IMG/VR virus record: IMGVR_UViG_3300020045_003178
Span: 1-24,968 of that record
Length of the DNA stretch: 24,968 bases
Direction: 5' to 3' (one strand)
Source: a virus
Lineage: Duplodnaviria > Caudoviricetes
Shown here in pieces: positions 5,979 through 18,113 of this stretch. Numbering within the stretch: position 1 is the first letter of the stretch; each line of letters opens with the position of its first letter. The position numbers and the translations under genes are program-made. Under the pieces are notes generated by a model. That model had not been told where the DNA came from, did not search any database, and saw nothing but the letters and a program-made list of their open reading frames with translations.

Positions 5979-6076
5979 AGTATAATTATTAAAATTGTTG
6001 ATAAAATTATGATTATTGTTATTGTGTAAATGAATGTTTTGAAAATCATATTCACTCTTTCGTCGTCTAGGTTCAT
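5975..6076 (-). CDS. 33-aa single-TM microprotein (MNLDDERVNMIFKTFIYTITIIIILSTILIIIL)
   Basis: ATGA overlaps at both ends; hydrophobic C-terminus. Confidence 0.5.
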   Translation of the reverse strand: MNLDDERVNMIFKTFIYTITIIIILSTILIIIL

Positions 6077-6366
6077 TTCGTTGCTTTTTTGATTAATTGA
6101 ACTATGCGGGCGTACGTGTCAGTACCGCAATCGTAATCCTGCTCTATCTTTTCCAACATCTCCAACATCTCAGGAGCGCACGCAATTAATTTGGCGTTGG
6201 CTCGACATTCTTCGTTTATTACATCCCCTAAATCCTGCCATGACCAAATAGTACAAACCGTATCATATTTTTGCGTTTTTAATTCGAATACTGGCTGATC
6301 ATATCTTTCGTCAAATTGTTCTGAAATTTCCCACTTCCCTTTTGTTCCTTTAAATTCGCTCATCAT
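6073..6366 (-). CDS. Phage protein of the TxGxW...ANAKLIACAPE family
   Basis: GTKGKW and ANAKLIACAPEMLEML motifs; paralogue of 16463..16825. Confidence 0.75.
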   Translation of the reverse strand: MMSEFKGTKGKWEISEQFDERYDQPVFELKTQKYDTVCTIWSWQDLGDVINEECRANAKLIACAPEMLEMLEKIEQDYDCGTDTYARIVQLIKKATK

Positions 6367-13208: not shown

Positions 13209-13711
13209 TATTTTAAAATTAATTTTAATCTATCTTTTTCAGCCAATACTTCAGATGTTGCTTTTTCTTTTGACGTTAATGACTCCCAATTAGTTACCAA
13301 CTCGGAAAGTGTTTTAGATCCGTTTAAAGTTAACTTGCATTTTTCAATATCTACTTTTTCAATAGTTGTTGGTGCAGTAGCCACAATTCTAATTGCATCG
13401 TGAAAGTCTCCGAACGCTTTTATTCTCTTTGTAGTTAATTGTATGCGTTTTCCTGACATTTCTTCAATATATGATGTGTCGGTAACTTTCTTTAAAGTTT
13501 TTCGATTTGTAGCATTTAAAATAATTGGCTTACATTCTAAAAAGAATACGGTCAAAACAGGCTCTTCCATTTGTGCCTTTTGATTAAAAACAAACTCAGA
13601 TTTAACTTCTTTTATTGTTACAATAATATCGTTAGTTTTACCGTTTTCATCCTGTAAGTCCCAACCTCCTAAATAGTTTGGATTTCTCAACTTGTCAATG
13701 TGTGTTTTCAT
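13208..13711 (-). CDS. Hypothetical protein, candidate ssDNA-annealing or binding partner of the exonuclease
   Basis: 167 aa, coupled by TAATG to the exonuclease; function inferred from position. Confidence 0.6.
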   Translation of the reverse strand: MKTHIDKLRNPNYLGGWDLQDENGKTNDIIVTIKEVKSEFVFNQKAQMEEPVLTVFFLECKPIILNATNRKTLKKVTDTSYIEEMSGKRIQLTTKRIKAFGDFHDAIRIVATAPTTIEKVDIEKCKLTLNGSKTLSELVTNWESLTSKEKATSEVLAEKDRLKLILK

Positions 13712-13716
13712 GATTT

Positions 13717-14010
13717 CTAATTTTTTATAGGCTGTTCAAAAATAGGATCATTTACTAATATTTCAGTAATTGATTTTGCAAAAGGGTACTTTTTAGATAT
13801 TACACTACATTCAGCACTTGCAATAATTCTACGATTCGCCATTTCTTGTTTAAATTTTGATTCTAAGCTATTAAAAATATCAATGCTATACTTAGTGTCG
13901 CTTTTTAATAAAAGATAGCGTAGAATTATCTCAGCTTCTTTATCAGCGGTTAATCTTTCGTTTGCAAAGGCGTTAATGTACTTTACAATGTTTAATAGTA
14001 GTTTTTTCAT
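13717..14010 (-). CDS. Hypothetical protein
   Basis: 97-aa ORF behind the promoter at 14027-14056. Confidence 0.65.
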   Translation of the reverse strand: MKKLLLNIVKYINAFANERLTADKEAEIILRYLLLKSDTKYSIDIFNSLESKFKQEMANRRIIASAECSVISKKYPFAKSITEILVNDPIFEQPIKN

Positions 14011-14026
14011 ATCGTTTTATTTTCTG

Positions 14027-14056
14027 TAAATGTAAACATAATTATTTACATAACAA
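14027..14056 (-). promoter_or_regulatory. Promoter variant TTG-N19-TACATTTA
   Basis: TAAATGTA 14027-14034, CAA 14054-14056; same form as 17721-17750. Confidence 0.6.
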
Positions 14057-14239
14057 TTAGAAAGGACAAATATTTTTATTTTGTTTAGGAATTAATTCTA
14101 AATATTCTCTTTTTATCTTTTCTGCTATAGCATCTCTAATAAATTGCGCCACGTTTATATGGTAACTATCTAGTTTCTTCAGAGTATCGTGTTGAATTTC
14201 TGTAATTTTTAAAACCTTTACTTTAGTATATTTTATCAT
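14057..14239 (-). CDS. Ribbon-helix-helix-like small DNA-binding protein next to the array
   Basis: beta strand KVKVLKI, helix, then NVAQFIRDAIAEKI. Confidence 0.7.
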   Translation of the reverse strand: MIKYTKVKVLKITEIQHDTLKKLDSYHINVAQFIRDAIAEKIKREYLELIPKQNKNICPF

Positions 14240-14272
14240 GGTTAAGAAATTAAAGTAATACTTTTATAACGA

Positions 14273-14286
14273 CAAGCCGATAGTTA
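14273..14286 (+). other. Left terminal half-site (attI-like), CAAGC-CGATA-GTTA
   Basis: Same geometry as the right arm of site 1 (CAAGC-GAACC-GTTA) but has no left arm. Confidence 0.55.
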
Positions 14287-14329
14287 TCACTAATGCAACC
14301 ACACAACATCGATTGCATTAGCGACAATA

Positions 14330-14602
14330 TTATCTTTTTAGTGATTCTATAAATTCCTCACAGGTTCTTGAAAATGTAGTTTTGTTTTTATCATTGTACT
14401 CATAATACCAACAATATTCAACATATCCTTGTTTCATCCTAGTTATTTTAACAGTAGCTTTTGATTGTTTCTCAAATGGATTTTTAGATTTATATCCGTA
14501 AATAACGTATGTTTTTCCAATTTTTAAATCTGTACATTTTACTTTTTGCGCATTTATACTTAATGAAAATGCTAAAACGATTAATAAAATTACTTTTTTC
14601 AT
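14330..14602 (-). CDS. Cassette A gene: exported protein with a Sec signal peptide
   Basis: MKKVILLIVLAFSLSINA|Q; flanked by GTTATCACTAATGCA (14283) and TGCACTAGTGATAAC (14654-14668). Confidence 0.8.
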   Translation of the reverse strand: MKKVILLIVLAFSLSINAQKVKCTDLKIGKTYVIYGYKSKNPFEKQSKATVKITRMKQGYVEYCWYYEYNDKNKTTFSRTCEEFIESLKR

Positions 14603-14664
14603 AATATTTGGTTTTGAGTTTTTTAAGGACGCTCAATCCGTTAAATAAAAAAATGCACTAGTGA

Positions 14665-14788
14665 TAACAGCTTGTATAGTTAATGCGGTATGGTGTTAAA
14701 TTAATTGTTGATTTTGTACTTGAATTATAGTTTTTGTATGGAGTGATTCGGCTTACTTTTACGCACTAACCATACAAGCGAACCGTTA
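14665..14788. repeat. attC-like site 1
   Basis: TAAC-A, stem 14670-14687/14762-14779 (16/18), GAACC-GTTA. Confidence 0.85.
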
Positions 14789-15064
14789 TGCGTCAGCTTC
14801 GTTGGAGTCGTCATAAAGAGGTTTTCCACTAAACGGACAAAATTTTGCATATACCATCATTTCTTTATAAGAAGATGTGAAATCCTCACTTCCTTTTTTG
14901 CCTTTCTTTCCTCGATACAAACAAGGAATCATTAAATGACGACCATCACCACCAAGAAAGAAACTTGAAGCGTTAAAACCTGCTCTTGGGTCTCCTGTTT
15001 TATCTTTTACTTTGTTTTCTATTTCTTCAATAGATTTCCAATTTTCTAAAATTTTATTTGACAT
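14786..15064 (-). CDS. Cassette B gene: hypothetical protein (C-terminal FCPFSG)
   Basis: 92 aa; stop TAA lies in the GTTA core at 14785-14788. Confidence 0.8.
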   Translation of the reverse strand: MSNKILENWKSIEEIENKVKDKTGDPRAGFNASSFFLGGDGRHLMIPCLYRGKKGKKGSEDFTSSYKEMMVYAKFCPFSGKPLYDDSNEADA

Positions 15065-15114
15065 ATTTTTGTTTTTTAATTATTAATATTGTGTTGAAAA
15101 AAAAGCCGAACGCA

Positions 15115-15241
15115 TAACAGCTGGTAAGCAATATGGTGGCACTCGGCTTAATTTAAAGTTTAGGTTAATTTTGCGAGATTTGTCTTGAATCTCGAAGTTT
15201 TGGCTTATCAGTCCACCACATCGCCTACCAGCAGAACGTTA
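15115..15241. repeat. attC-like site 2
   Basis: TAAC-A, stem 15120-15139/15213-15232 (17/20), AGAAC-GTTA. Confidence 0.85.
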
Positions 15242-15406
15242 CTGGTTATTTTTCCTCTCGTAACTTGCCAAAAATTCCCTGACTAAAGCTTTAACTTCAT
15301 CTATTTTAGAAATAGGAATACGAAAAGCAGTTGTTTTTGTTGGTTCGTTATATTTTGGTTTAGCACCCGCATTTTTGCGAGTGCCTCCTCTATTTTCTTT
15401 TACCAT
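15239..15406 (-). CDS. Cassette C gene 2: 55-aa GGxR microprotein, missing from the ORF track
   Basis: MVKENRGGTRKNAGAKPKYNEPTKTTAFRIPISKIDEVKALVREFLASYERKNNQ; stop lies in the GTTA core. Confidence 0.75.
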   Translation of the reverse strand: MVKENRGGTRKNAGAKPKYNEPTKTTAFRIPISKIDEVKALVREFLASYERKNNQ

Positions 15407-15558
15407 AATCTACAAGTTCCATCGTTATACTTACGCATTGTTATCTTTTGCCCATACTTATTTAAGTATTCAATTTCGCCAAAAACATTTGCCGAAATTT
15501 CAAAACCAAAACTCATTAAAAAACGTTTGGCATCTTGAACTGATTTGTAATATCCCAT
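15400..15558 (-). CDS. Cassette C gene 1: 52-aa hypothetical protein (MGYYKSVQDAK...)
   Basis: ATG 15558 downstream of the internal promoter; overlaps gene 2. Confidence 0.65.
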   Translation of the reverse strand: MGYYKSVQDAKRFLMSFGFEISANVFGEIEYLNKYGQKITMRKYNDGTCRLW

Positions 15559-15589
15559 AATTTCTATTATTTTGATTGTCAATAATATT

Positions 15590-15620
15590 CAAAGATAATC
15601 ATTTATTTTGAATACGCAAA
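15590..15620 (-). promoter_or_regulatory. Cassette-internal consensus promoter TTTG-N19-TATCTTTG
   Basis: CAAAGATA 15590-15597, CAAA 15617-15620. Confidence 0.75.
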
Positions 15621-15656
15621 CTATTTCAAAGAAAATATTATAAAAAAAACAACCAG

Positions 15657-15716
15657 TAACACACAATAACCGCTATTTGCCGAATCTACTAACCGCACAG
15701 GCAAACAGCCGTGTTA
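15657..15716. repeat. attC-like site 3 (short; right arm apparently truncated)
   Basis: TAAC 15657, stem 15672-15681/15700-15709 (9/10); loop similar to site 5. Confidence 0.7.
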
Positions 15717-15947
15717 TTCGTCAAGCAACTTCATAACATTTGGAATTACATCTTTTAAAAATAATGTGTGTGGTACATCATCATCAAAAAAATTAAGATT
15801 TAACCATTTTTCATTTTCATTATCCCATTTTACTTGACCACCAATAAACAAAGGATATTTACCTTTAGTTTTTGCTTCAATAATATCTCCTTCAAATATT
15901 TTATTACCATCTGTGGTAATTTTTCCCGTAAATCTTTTTTCTTCCAT
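15714..15947 (-). CDS. Cassette D gene: short YopX-like protein
   Basis: RFTGKITTDGNKIFEGDII motif. Confidence 0.7.
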   Translation of the reverse strand: MEEKRFTGKITTDGNKIFEGDIIEAKTKGKYPLFIGGQVKWDNENEKWLNLNFFDDDVPHTLFLKDVIPNVMKLLDE

Positions 15948-15973
15948 TTCGTTTGAATTAAAAGCCGAAGTGA

Positions 15974-16098
15974 TAACAGTTGCTACCAGCTATAGCCACA
16001 TTCGGCATTGGTTAGTAATTTTGTGTGTTTGTGATTATTTGGCTCAATCGGAGCATAGTTTTGTACTTTTGGCTACATCTGGTAGCAACAGGACGTTA
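15974..16098. repeat. attC-like site 4
   Basis: TAAC-A, stem 15979-15998/16070-16089 (18/20), AGGAC-GTTA. Confidence 0.85.
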
Positions 16099-16107
16099 TC
16101 AGGAATA

Positions 16108-16347
16108 CTATGATTCCGTTTTTACAAGAACTTCTTCAAGCCAATGCGTGTAATTGTTTTTTAAGTAATCCGTAACATAATGACATTCCATCATTTCTAT
16201 AAATTTATTTTTCTTTATCTCTACTTTTTCATTTGGATGATAATCTTGCATAAATTCACCTTGATAATTTTCATCTAAAAACATAACTCTTTTACCCATA
16301 TTTGGTAATCTATCGGATATTTTTACAGTTCTAAATAATCTTTCCAT
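16108..16347 (-). CDS. Cassette E gene: DUF551-like protein
   Basis: VKISDRLP...YTHWLEE; start moved to ATG 16347 because the longer ORF begins inside site 5. Confidence 0.7.
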   Translation of the reverse strand: MERLFRTVKISDRLPNMGKRVMFLDENYQGEFMQDYHPNEKVEIKKNKFIEMMECHYVTDYLKNNYTHWLEEVLVKTES

Positions 16348-16381
16348 AACATATTTATTTTTAATTAATTCGTACTCCTGA

Positions 16382-16453
16382 TAACAGCAATTACACCTCA
16401 CCAGCCGAACCTAGCAACCGCATAGGCTGGCGTTGTGTAGTTGCAGAACGTTA
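16382..16453. repeat. attC-like site 5 (short)
   Basis: TAAC-A, stem 16387-16406/16425-16444 (16/20), AGAAC-GTTA. Confidence 0.85.
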
Positions 16454-16462
16454 GGGCAAATA

Positions 16463-16825
16463 CTATGTTAGTGCTTTTTCAAGAACTTTTTTTGCATTAT
16501 CCCAAGCAATTGGTTGTGCTTTTAAATACTGAGCATCTTTGCCGTACTTATCCTTCCACTCCTTTACTTGGATTAATTCTTCTAATGCTTCTAATAGTTC
16601 AGGAGCGCAAGCAATTAGTTTTGCATTGGCTTCTCTATAAGTTCCTGTAATTAATACGTTTTTACCATCTTGAATACCTTTTACTTTAGGTCTAGGATAC
16701 CAGCTTACGGTTGCGATAGTTTCGCCATCTTCTGTGTAAATTTGAGTATCATACATTCCTTTTTTGTTATTAGGAATTTTTCTGTGAGATTGTTTCCATT
16801 CTCCTGGTGTAAAATCTTTTTTCAT
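16463..16825 (-). CDS. Cassette F gene: TPGEW...ANAKLIACAPE family protein
   Basis: Paralogue of 6073..6366; start moved to ATG 16825. Confidence 0.8.
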   Translation of the reverse strand: MKKDFTPGEWKQSHRKIPNNKKGMYDTQIYTEDGETIATVSWYPRPKVKGIQDGKNVLITGTYREANAKLIACAPELLEALEELIQVKEWKDKYGKDAQYLKAQPIAWDNAKKVLEKALT

Positions 16826-16858
16826 AATTAATTTTAGTTTAATAATCCGTACTTGCCC

Positions 16859-16944
16859 TAACATACGCTTGTAAGCTATATGCTACGGCTTTTTTCTTTC
16901 TATTCACGTTCTGTCTTGGCATACAGCTACAAGCTTTTCCGTTA
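16859..16944. repeat. attC-like site 6
   Basis: TAAC-ATAC, stem 16867-16885/16917-16934 with a one-base bulge, TTTTCC-GTTA. Confidence 0.8.
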
Positions 16945-17196
16945 TGCAACAGTTTCAGAAACCTCGATTGAAACAGAAACATTTTCTGAAACAGTTTTTC
17001 CAAACGTATAATCAACTCTTACATAATGTTCAATTTTATCTACAATAAATGATTTTTGTATTTCCTTCACAGTCCAGTAATCTTTCTTATTGTTATTTAC
17101 AGATAAATGAATAACCTGTCCAATATTAAATGGATTGCTTTCTAAATTTAAGTTTTGAATTTCATTTCCTTCTTTGTCAGTAATTTCTATTCTCAT
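16942..17196 (-). CDS. Cassette G gene: hypothetical protein
   Basis: 84 aa; stop lies in the GTTA core at 16941-16944. Confidence 0.8.
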   Translation of the reverse strand: MRIEITDKEGNEIQNLNLESNPFNIGQVIHLSVNNNKKDYWTVKEIQKSFIVDKIEHYVRVDYTFGKTVSENVSVSIEVSETVA

Positions 17197-17223
17197 AATT
17201 TTTAATGTTAAAAACCGATTGCA

Positions 17224-17350
17224 TAACAGCCGTTTGGCAATATGGCAATATCAGGCTTAATTTATAATTTGTTTTGTGTCAGATTTATGGTTTCTCAACC
17301 GAAATATTAGGCTTATTTGTCCCATCCGAAAAGCAACACGCAAAACGTTA
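17224..17350. repeat. attC-like site 7 (terminal; right arm decayed)
   Basis: Same length as and similar to site 2; ends GC-AAAAC-GTTA. Confidence 0.75.
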
Positions 17351-17581
17351 CTCTTCGAATGACTCATAATGTTTTTTCTCTACGGCTTCGAATTTTAACT
17401 GCCTATCGATTATTTCAAGTATTTTAGAAAAATGACTATCTGGTATTGGATTATCTAATTTAGAGTTAAACCAACGTTGGCGAACCTGTGCGAAACTTGT
17501 ATTTGTCTTATCCGCAATTACAACAAGTATTGCTGTCTTATGCTTCATTAAAGCATATTTTTCTGCAATTTGTTTTTTCAT
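17348..17581 (-). CDS. Resident small protein, possibly an HTH regulator, bounding the array
   Basis: 77 aa; stop lies in the final GTTA, but no matching inverted repeat upstream. Confidence 0.7.
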   Translation of the reverse strand: MKKQIAEKYALMKHKTAILVVIADKTNTSFAQVRQRWFNSKLDNPIPDSHFSKILEIIDRQLKFEAVEKKHYESFEE

Positions 17582-17583
17582 AA

Positions 17584-17688
17584 TTAAAATTCGCTAGGGG
17601 TTAATTTTTTACCTCTAAATAAATAGTTACTAATTTCTTCGTGCGATGTGTAGCCTAATGTTATAACGGCTAAAAATAGTTTTTTCAT
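17584..17688 (-). CDS. 34-aa hypothetical protein (MKKLFLAVITLG...)
   Basis: First ORF behind the promoter at 17721-17750. Confidence 0.5.
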   Translation of the reverse strand: MKKLFLAVITLGYTSHEEISNYLFRGKKLTPSEF

Positions 17689-17720
17689 GGCGTTAGTTTT
17701 AATTTGTTATTTCTATGGTG

Positions 17721-17750
17721 TAAATGTAATCATAATATATAACATAACAA
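17721..17750 (-). promoter_or_regulatory. Promoter TTG-N19-TACATTTA pointing into the cassette array
   Basis: TAAATGTA 17721-17728, CAA 17748-17750. Confidence 0.65.
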
Positions 17751-17760
17751 TACTTTTTAT

Positions 17761-17788
17761 AAAAAAAGTGTAAAATAAATTACACTTT
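17761..17788 (-). terminator. Terminator ending the lysis/late operon
   Basis: AAAGTGTAA/TTACACTTT stem at 17765-17788 with a T-run on the minus strand. Confidence 0.6.
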
Positions 17789-17879
17789 GAATACATCATC
17801 AACAATTTTCTCATTGTCAGTGCCTTTGATTCCCTTTCGATTCTTAAGAACCAAACCTATTCCTACGACAATCGCTCTT

Positions 17880-18113
17880 TCAATAATCTTGCCTACTACT
17901 GTGTCCCAAAATTTCTTTTTCATTTATTACTTCTTTTATAATTAAACAATCTTCATACATTTCGGCATCTTCAAAAACCCTCAATGCGCACTCTAAATCT
18001 TTAACCGTTCCGATATTACACCATTGTAAAAATTGTTCCTCTGTTTGAATTGAACGAATGTAACGAGGGTCGCAAAGTTCTTCGTAGGCTTGGTTAAGTT
18101 TTTGAATGTTCAT
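17880..18113 (-). CDS. Hypothetical protein
   Basis: 77 aa; ATGA overlap with the endolysin. Confidence 0.65.
   Translation of the reverse strand: MNIQKLNQAYEELCDPRYIRSIQTEEQFLQWCNIGTVKDLECALRVFEDAEMYEDCLIIKEVINEKEILGHSSRQDY

Follow-up and report, generated by a model that had tools for sequence, protein, structure and literature searches.

That the two ends of a cassette can pair with each other belongs to the early integron literature. Recombination of folded cassette sites is held to require an insertion of the integron integrase IntI that reads extrahelical bases (PMC8138268, PMC4792948), and the origin of integrons without this insertion is stated as an open question (PMC4792948). The latter source describes the insertion as holding the extrahelical bases, and XerCD as acting on a folded strand of the CTX phage whose stem mimics duplex DNA without extrahelical bases. 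Xer sites comprise 11+6+11 bp (PMC2731167), and classical attC sites carry G:T pairs on the bottom strand, favouring it (PMC5027507). In Polaribacter phage P12002L, which carries a cluster of attC sites lacking integron-integrases (CALIN), the sites were reported as ordinary attC sites of divergent direction, and the part of that report considered here mentions no extended end stem, wobble or Bacteroidota enzyme (PMC9892861).

Here we analyze an array of small minus-strand genes at positions 14283-17349 of the virus record IMGVR_UViG_3300020045_003178, a linear stretch of 24,968 bases that is called the window throughout. We propose, with a probability of roughly two in three, that the ends of these units delimit swappable cassettes and form, once folded, the outer arm of a single-strand site of the attC kind, the whole being a Bacteroidota variant of the integron that is likely run by a host enzyme.

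Paired cassette ends and exchange at G|TT

The array contains six cassettes with both ends (A, B, C, E, F and G) and a damaged unit, D (Table 1). Each unit is separated from the next by AAC, a single base, a hairpin 64-119 nt long, a further five bases and GTT, in this order, the spacers being 4 and 6 nt after F; an AAC...GTT core thus flanks an imperfect hairpin, as in an integron attC. The array begins on the left without a hairpin and ends with one on the right, so that a cassette consists of TT, gene, AAC, hairpin and G, and the plus strand of the window is the "top" strand in integron terms, its genes being antisense to top.

An earlier note on this DNA, made from the letters alone, had claimed that each cassette has its own complementary ends. 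The six end pairs lie where it had placed them (outer coordinates of the six cassettes in Table 1), and they are among ten GTT..AAC pairs with at least eight leading matches in 14200-17400. Cognate ends match at 40/42 places over positions 4-10, and among the 720 permutations of end pairings, the null that the note had named, a single one equals this value. Positions 8-10 give 16/18 (2/720 permutations) and positions 12-16, ungapped, 21/30 (4/720). The complementarity spans the gene and not the neighbouring hairpin, as had also been claimed, since the ends facing each other across a hairpin match at 2-4 of 7 places (five junctions tested). Position 11 of the left end is an A (A11). It faces C directly in four cassettes (A, C, E and F), whereas B and G need a bulge of one base for this, which is how the note had drawn them. 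What it took for a mismatch is, on the strand that folds better, a T.G wobble. This strand is the bottom one: when units were circularized in silico and folded, the bottom strand was lower in four of five, with G the exception; C was not buildable.

One unit gives way to another precisely at G|TT, behind an entry site that stays the same. The gene bordering the array has relatives in 21 viral contigs, 17 of which were read at the entry site (L011, L013, L014 and L021 were omitted; L018 and L019 were read by eye). Sequences are conserved up to AG|TT in 16/17 contigs and then continue into 13 different cassette starts, with A11 in all 16. Cassette B occurs in Flavobacterium phage 6H with other neighbours and a different hairpin, and homologues of its gene show matched end changes at positions 7, 9 and 10. 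A near copy of cassette G, with a protein 98% identical, lies elsewhere and its likeness starts exactly at G|TT. Relatives and cassettes B and G in other contexts thus switch at the same point, in agreement with the claim that the units are mobile cassettes cut there.

Three side observations concern these units. Homologues of gene B also occur without ends. In the record of phage 23T (L023:6100-6115), ambiguous bases stand just after the G|TT of cassette B and in the preceding hairpin, as if the sequenced stock had been mixed. The left ends of E and F (16095-16136 and 16450-16491) are alike inside, yet differ with matched changes at positions 5-10.

Cassettes of this type in phages and Bacteroidota

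Hits of a degenerate pattern were estimated at 1,100 stretches in viral contigs and 4,300 in genome contigs, with titles that mostly point to Bacteroidota. Junctions were called from the inner hairpin alone, with end pairing unused and only spacers of 1/5, 2/5, 1/4, 4/5 and 4/6 allowed, and a cassette was taken as the stretch between neighbouring junctions. This gave 421 cassettes, or 357 after dereplication (175 viral, 182 bacterial). Inner-stem positions 4-7 and the bases adjoining AAC and GTT were imposed by the seed pattern and were recounted on loci fetched by protein or region, five of the genomes concerned having first been reached through that pattern.

Over positions 5-9, cognate identity is 0.82-0.87 in viral and 0.92-0.96 in bacterial cassettes. 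Across the hairpin it is 0.26-0.47 and 0.28-0.74, respectively, equal to the permuted values, so that the larger set, in which equal scores of cognate and non-cognate pairs would have counted against the earlier note, came out in its favour. Pairing returns at positions 12-15 (0.66-0.86) and is at background from 16. The end stem is thus about 15 bp, against about 8 bp in classical sites, close to the factor of two over the R box that had been suggested. A11 is fixed family-wide, as the note had it, with a left A11 in 174/175 viral and 179/182 bacterial cassettes (353/357); the right end has A at this position in 1 viral and 8 bacterial cassettes (9/357). With a one-base bulge allowed, A11 stands opposite C in 297/309 well-paired cassettes. 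Among the spacer combinations allowed, 1 and 5 nt account for 264/309, in place of the classical 5-6 nt on both arms. The ends depart from the R-box consensus RYYYAAC/GTTRRRY, position 5 being T in about half and positions 6-7 near uniform; many classical cassettes depart from it too.

End sequences are diverse, with 89 different hexamers at positions 5-10 among 136 viral cassettes. Within one cassette family of 540 nt both ends change together: matched ends of three types are found in 25/28 copies, the others being two chimeras and one copy with a single change. Hairpins at least 95% identical adjoin ends as unlike as random ones (36 pairs, 3.14 vs 3.36 differences of 6), which indicates that hairpins are homogenized or exchanged separately from the ends. 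Fractions of compensated changes computed on this set are raised artificially by the filter for paired ends and were given no weight. The same fact could be expected if a transposase moved the hairpins or whole units as elements bounded by terminal inverted repeats, akin to transposons or to miniature transposable elements with inverted repeats (MITEs). MITE candidates common to Flavobacteriales and their viruses have been reported (PMC11602168). We nevertheless consider this the least probable of all explanations. The six junctions that were read show no duplication beside the units; insertion always occurs at G|TT, behind one entry site and in one orientation; a tyrosine recombinase heads the host arrays (see below); and the ends are private to each unit instead of forming one shared repeat.

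The diversity of the ends and their independence of the hairpin would also suit a mechanism in which they form a stem over the gene while the DNA is linear and single-stranded, this long-range stem being the excision substrate. Stems and hairpins would then alternate like the arms of a Holliday junction left by integration, and private ends would define the excised unit. In the array, ends facing across a hairpin pair for some four bases only, less than an 11-bp arm requires, and folding of the linear bottom strand predicts pairing across the gene with a probability of 0.80-0.98 in 5/6 units, at odds with the claim that the stem forms only in the excised circle. The remaining unit, A, is predicted to pair with a probability of only 0.15, and equilibrium folding leaves out single-strand DNA-binding protein and kinetics. 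Ends of neighbouring cassettes are near-identical as often as random (5/135 and 19/173 vs 4% and 9% expected), and thus show no sign of selection for distinct barcodes. Moreover, classical cassettes in our sample do not pair across the hairpin at positions 6-8 and yet are excised by attC x attC recombination (PMC3053210). A role for the long-range stem thus appears doubtful, and it would add to the folded outer arm that we favour rather than replace it.

We compared these cassettes with a classical control. A class-wide search for classical integrases had given 0/201, its own control being silent too, and the set was then built from named phage and plasmid records (Shewanella, Vibrio, a Tetrasphaera phage, class 1 and class 2). 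It holds 21 unique cassettes, 18 of them kept, and is rich in Shewanella, with a few false calls among them. Identity between classical cognate ends is 0.87-0.96 over positions 5-8 and declines to 0.35 over 10-14 (23 rows); classical cassettes pair their own ends at positions 4-8 and not across the hairpin. Pairing of a cassette's own ends is thus general among integron cassettes and is not new. Cognate pairing, which had been presented as distinctive, is not so at positions 4-8, whereas the outer stem (304/315 here vs 2/18 classical cassettes, non-cognate pairs reaching it in 25%) and the fixed G partner (A11 opposite C in 302/315 vs 2/18) are the only features specific to these cassettes.

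These counts bear on the possibility that we are dealing with ordinary attC sites under a classical IntI, where the longer stem would merely steady an AT-rich hairpin and position 11 would be a by-product. Classical sites likewise have the AAC/GTT core, a crossover at G|TT, a G.T bias on the bottom strand and pairing of cognate ends, and a left A11 is frequent in classical cassettes (15/18). We hold this explanation to be improbable, given the outer-stem counts above, the spacers of 1 and 5 nt against 5-6 per side in classical attC (PMC5027507), and an array-heading enzyme that has no IntI insertion and scores under the cut-off of TIGR02249. Besides, IntI1 recombined all but one of six phage sites (PMC9892861), and the exception, attC1 of phage P12002L, has the family geometry by our own reading. 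This site adjoins an A11/G11 end pair and was not called by our junction detector; attC2 of the same phage, assayed on the other strand, recombined with IntI1 (PMC9892861).

The A.C at position 11 of the top strand is a T.G on the bottom strand, and without gaps bottom-strand G.T pairs number 280 against 1 on top. At circle junctions the bottom strand has the lower folding energy in 77/80 viral and 77/80 bacterial cases. Relative to the top strand, phage genes are mostly antisense (108/136) and bacterial genes mostly sense (140/173). Since gene orientation flips while the wobble stays on the bottom strand, the wobble is a property of the DNA site rather than of the mRNA. That is also the main argument against paired ends acting in RNA, as a 5'-3' closing stem or as a terminator of small transcripts with a G.U pair, for which it could be said that the wobble strand is the mRNA strand in this phage. 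The ends coincide with points of DNA exchange, and an Rfam scan of 13500-18000 returned no family beyond a single chance match. A function in RNA thus seems very improbable.

Other positions are fixed besides 11, as counted on loci that the seed pattern had not selected. AAC is followed by A in 135/137 and GTT is preceded by C in 137/137, which makes a second bottom-strand T.G. The left arm has A at inner position 14 in 134/137, opposite C in 99, and at inner position 5 a T faces G on the top strand in 89/137, a true mismatch on the bottom strand. The earlier note's invariant position is thus indeed fixed, but as one among several fixed asymmetric positions of the folded site. The classical extrahelical G in L'' and the second T were looked for, and inner stem positions 1-10 proved to be paired without a bulge. 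The asymmetric positions 5 and 14 may stand in for extrahelical bases, and position 11 may be a recognition determinant, as its conservation suggests.

Several side observations were made on these arrays. In phage, incoming cassettes would join at the far end of the transcription unit. A motif like the -7 promoter consensus of Bacteroidota occurs in hairpins longer than 100 nt on the top strand in 21/115 viral and 52/169 bacterial cases, and on the bottom strand in 3 and 3. A few junctions are reversed in the phage arrays L016 and L022. One very long chromosomal array (G003:C1, about 3,476,000-3,982,000) has 155 pattern hits and many repeated cassettes, and lies behind the recombinase at 3,985,864. 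On the distal side of bacterial arrays, the open reading frames (ORFs) L318:6079-7236 and L241:828-1589 resemble, by inspection, a Tet(X)-type monooxygenase and a B1 metallo-beta-lactamase.

A candidate recombinase and a proposed mechanism

No tyrosine recombinase is encoded in the window, a record estimated by CheckV to be 73% complete, nor in a complete 36-kb relative with 12 junctions, nor in P12002L. Bacterial arrays begin behind a co-oriented tyrosine recombinase of 340-370 aa. Homologues of this protein gave 30 loci from 151 genomes of the phylum, 26 of them with at least 850 nt downstream. A junction or end pair on the same strand lies downstream of the recombinase in 15/26 loci (query included), and the reverse occurs in none. 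The first G|TT is found mostly 60-140 nt past the recombinase stop, behind a shared motif ending in AG. There is thus an attI-like head site both in phages and behind the host enzyme, each ending AG|TT, whose activity remains putative. We propose that the phage likely runs its array with the host enzyme.

The array-heading protein scores best with the XerA-like model NF040815, below the integron-integrase cut-off of TIGR02249 and below those of XerC and XerD, and it is missing the catalytic-domain insertion of the IntI1, Shewanella and Vibrio integrases. The recombinase carries an extra N-terminal domain of 65 aa, found in 69/151 genomes of the genus, with a weak resemblance to HARP (Pfam HARP with E 7e-4 in 1/14; HARP of SMARCAL1 as best match with E 0.056; first Foldseek rank with E 0.39). 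A single-sequence fold of the recombinase was unusable (pLDDT 45). As a side observation, a Chryseobacterium plasmid (L445:9001-18987) has a recombinase 52% identical, followed by a group II intron and by small genes in the same orientation. One could imagine from all this a second kind of integron, where a private 15-base end code would pair across the gene on single-stranded DNA, served by a Xer-like enzyme with a HARP-like junction-binding domain, and where phages would hold the entry site only; we regard it as possible but unlikely.

In the folded-arm mechanism that we prefer, the bottom strand of the circular cassette (the minus strand of the window) would fold into an outer arm, a bulged 6-nt centre and an inner hairpin. 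A recombinase without the module for flipped-out bases would need a duplex arm of Xer length, covering positions 2-12, and this need may be the reason for a stem twice the length of the classical R box. The cut would fall between A and C of AAC, and the cassette would be joined to the double-stranded entry site. The invariant T11 of the cut strand would likely be a protein contact that stays A:T in the duplex junction, while its G partner would let the bottom strand pair and leave the top strand with an A.C mismatch. The right end, having no A11, would not be read as a cutting arm, by which strand and orientation would be fixed. We also considered whether the stem could have arisen solely by using one end as the template for the other, and rejected this, as it would yield A:T or G:C at position 11.

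Some observations weigh against this proposal. Among sequencing runs, none shared more than 12% of the sequence words and no RNA run was listed; the contigs from four of them, which are relatives only, contain no circle junction and are uninformative on the absence of circles. The link to the enzyme is one of neighbourhood, 11/26 recombinase loci show no site within 0.85-1.5 kb, and 3/5 array-bearing phages carry a tyrosine recombinase of their own. A left A11, being as common in classical cassettes as said above, is possibly a shared feature and not a mark of the family. The highly conserved A of dif at arm position 8 corresponds to position 9 here and not to 11 (PMC2731167). The wobble improves folding only slightly, by some 1 kcal/mol over the stem, and the unit that folds better on the top strand is G, whose hairpin is damaged. 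Finally, the copy of cassette B in phage 6H has one unmatched change.

What would be the significance of such a system? With a likely enzyme without the insertion, a duplex-length arm and a fixed wobble, it is a candidate for such a simpler state of the integron. By the end rule, cassettes can readily be marked off in a phylum in which almost none are detected by IntegronFinder (bioRxiv 2022.02.28.482270). It also shows that phages reshuffle small accessory genes through a gene-swapping system common to Bacteroidota and their phages.

The array in the phage record and among known systems

The window encodes a terminase, a YqaJ exonuclease and a muramidase, and its matches to named phages are Flavobacterium phages only (12 records). 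The features of the array are collected in Table 1. The left arm of D and the G|TT of C were lost by a deletion near 15709, where contigs of two sequencing runs continue into an intact hairpin arm, spacer and G|TT; this deletion probably fused C and D into a fixed block.

Table 1. Features of the cassette array and its borders (positions in the window).
Feature	Position	Strand	Remarks
60-aa gene, phrog_25647, unknown function	14057..14239	-	fixed; borders array in related phages
Putative entry site, attI-like	14261..14285	+	kept up to G|TT at 14283 in 16/17 related contigs; without long hairpin
Cassette A, left arm	14283..14297	+	A11 at 14293
Cassette A, gene, 90 aa	14330..14602	-	family match: none
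Cassette A, right arm	14654..14668	+	
Hairpin of A, 116 nt	14669..14784	+	spacers 1 nt and 5 nt
Cassette B with arms 14785-14799 and 15103-15118	14785..15118	+	gene 14786-15064 (-), phrog_38446
Hairpin of B, 119 nt	15119..15237	+	
Cassette C with arms	15238..15660	+	two small ORFs (-): 15239-15406, 15400-15582
Short hairpin of C	15661..15713	+	truncated at about 15709 by deletion
Damaged unit D	15714..15977	+	gene 15714-15947 (-), weak YopX match; right arm to 15977; left arm absent
Hairpin of D, 117 nt	15978..16094	+	
Cassette E with arms	16095..16385	+	gene (-) 16108 to likely start 16347; DUF551, E 3e-4
Hairpin of E, 64 nt, short class	16386..16449	+	
Cassette F with arms	16450..16862	+	gene (-) 16463 to likely start 16825; phrog_1273
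Hairpin of F, 78 nt	16863..16940	+	spacers 4 nt and 6 nt
Cassette G with arms	16941..17227	+	gene 16942-17196 (-)
Hairpin of G and last G|TT at 17347	17228..17349	+	arms no longer complementary; last G|TT without A11, overlaps stop codon of next phage gene

A few further features were noted in and around the array. The hairpin of G looks chimeric, its early part being like the hairpin of B and its later part like a hairpin of phage 6H. Upstream of small genes to the left and right of the array, at 13983-14057 and 17661-17751, lie two imperfect direct repeats (34 and 42 nt), possibly early promoters. A second phrog_1273 gene (6073-6366), related to the gene of cassette F, lies outside the array, with no junction called adjoining it.

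A literature search, mostly outside subscription papers, found no description of this type of site. The array works like integron cassettes but falls outside the integrons in its integrase and its spacer geometry. Like integron attC and CALIN arrays, it consists of tandem one-gene cassettes with a folded AAC...GTT site, a G|TT crossover, an entry site at the head, a bottom-strand G.T bias and complementary own ends. Unlike them, it has an end stem of about 15 bp with a fixed T.G at position 11, not of about 8 bp, spacers of 1 and 5 nt and no RYYYAAC/GTTRRRY; its candidate enzyme has an extra N-terminal domain and no IntI insertion and is co-oriented with the array, and the phage genes are antisense to top. 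The CALIN of phage P12002L is close to it, as this Flavobacteriaceae phage has a cognate A11/G11 end pair in the same cluster and genes antisense to top.

A parallel can also be drawn with the Xer systems. The 11-bp arm and 6-nt centre of Xer/dif fit positions 2-12 and the C plus 5-nt spacer described here, although dif is double-stranded and of fixed sequence, and its most conserved outer A lies two positions further in (PMC2731167). The CTX phage borrows a host Xer-type enzyme without the I2 module, which acts on a duplex-mimicking single-strand stem (PMC4792948), and the phage array would do likewise. However, in that case a whole phage enters dif, whereas here an array carried by the phage takes up small cassettes, and the candidate enzyme is not XerC/XerD but a recombinase of its own kind, dedicated and linked to the arrays.

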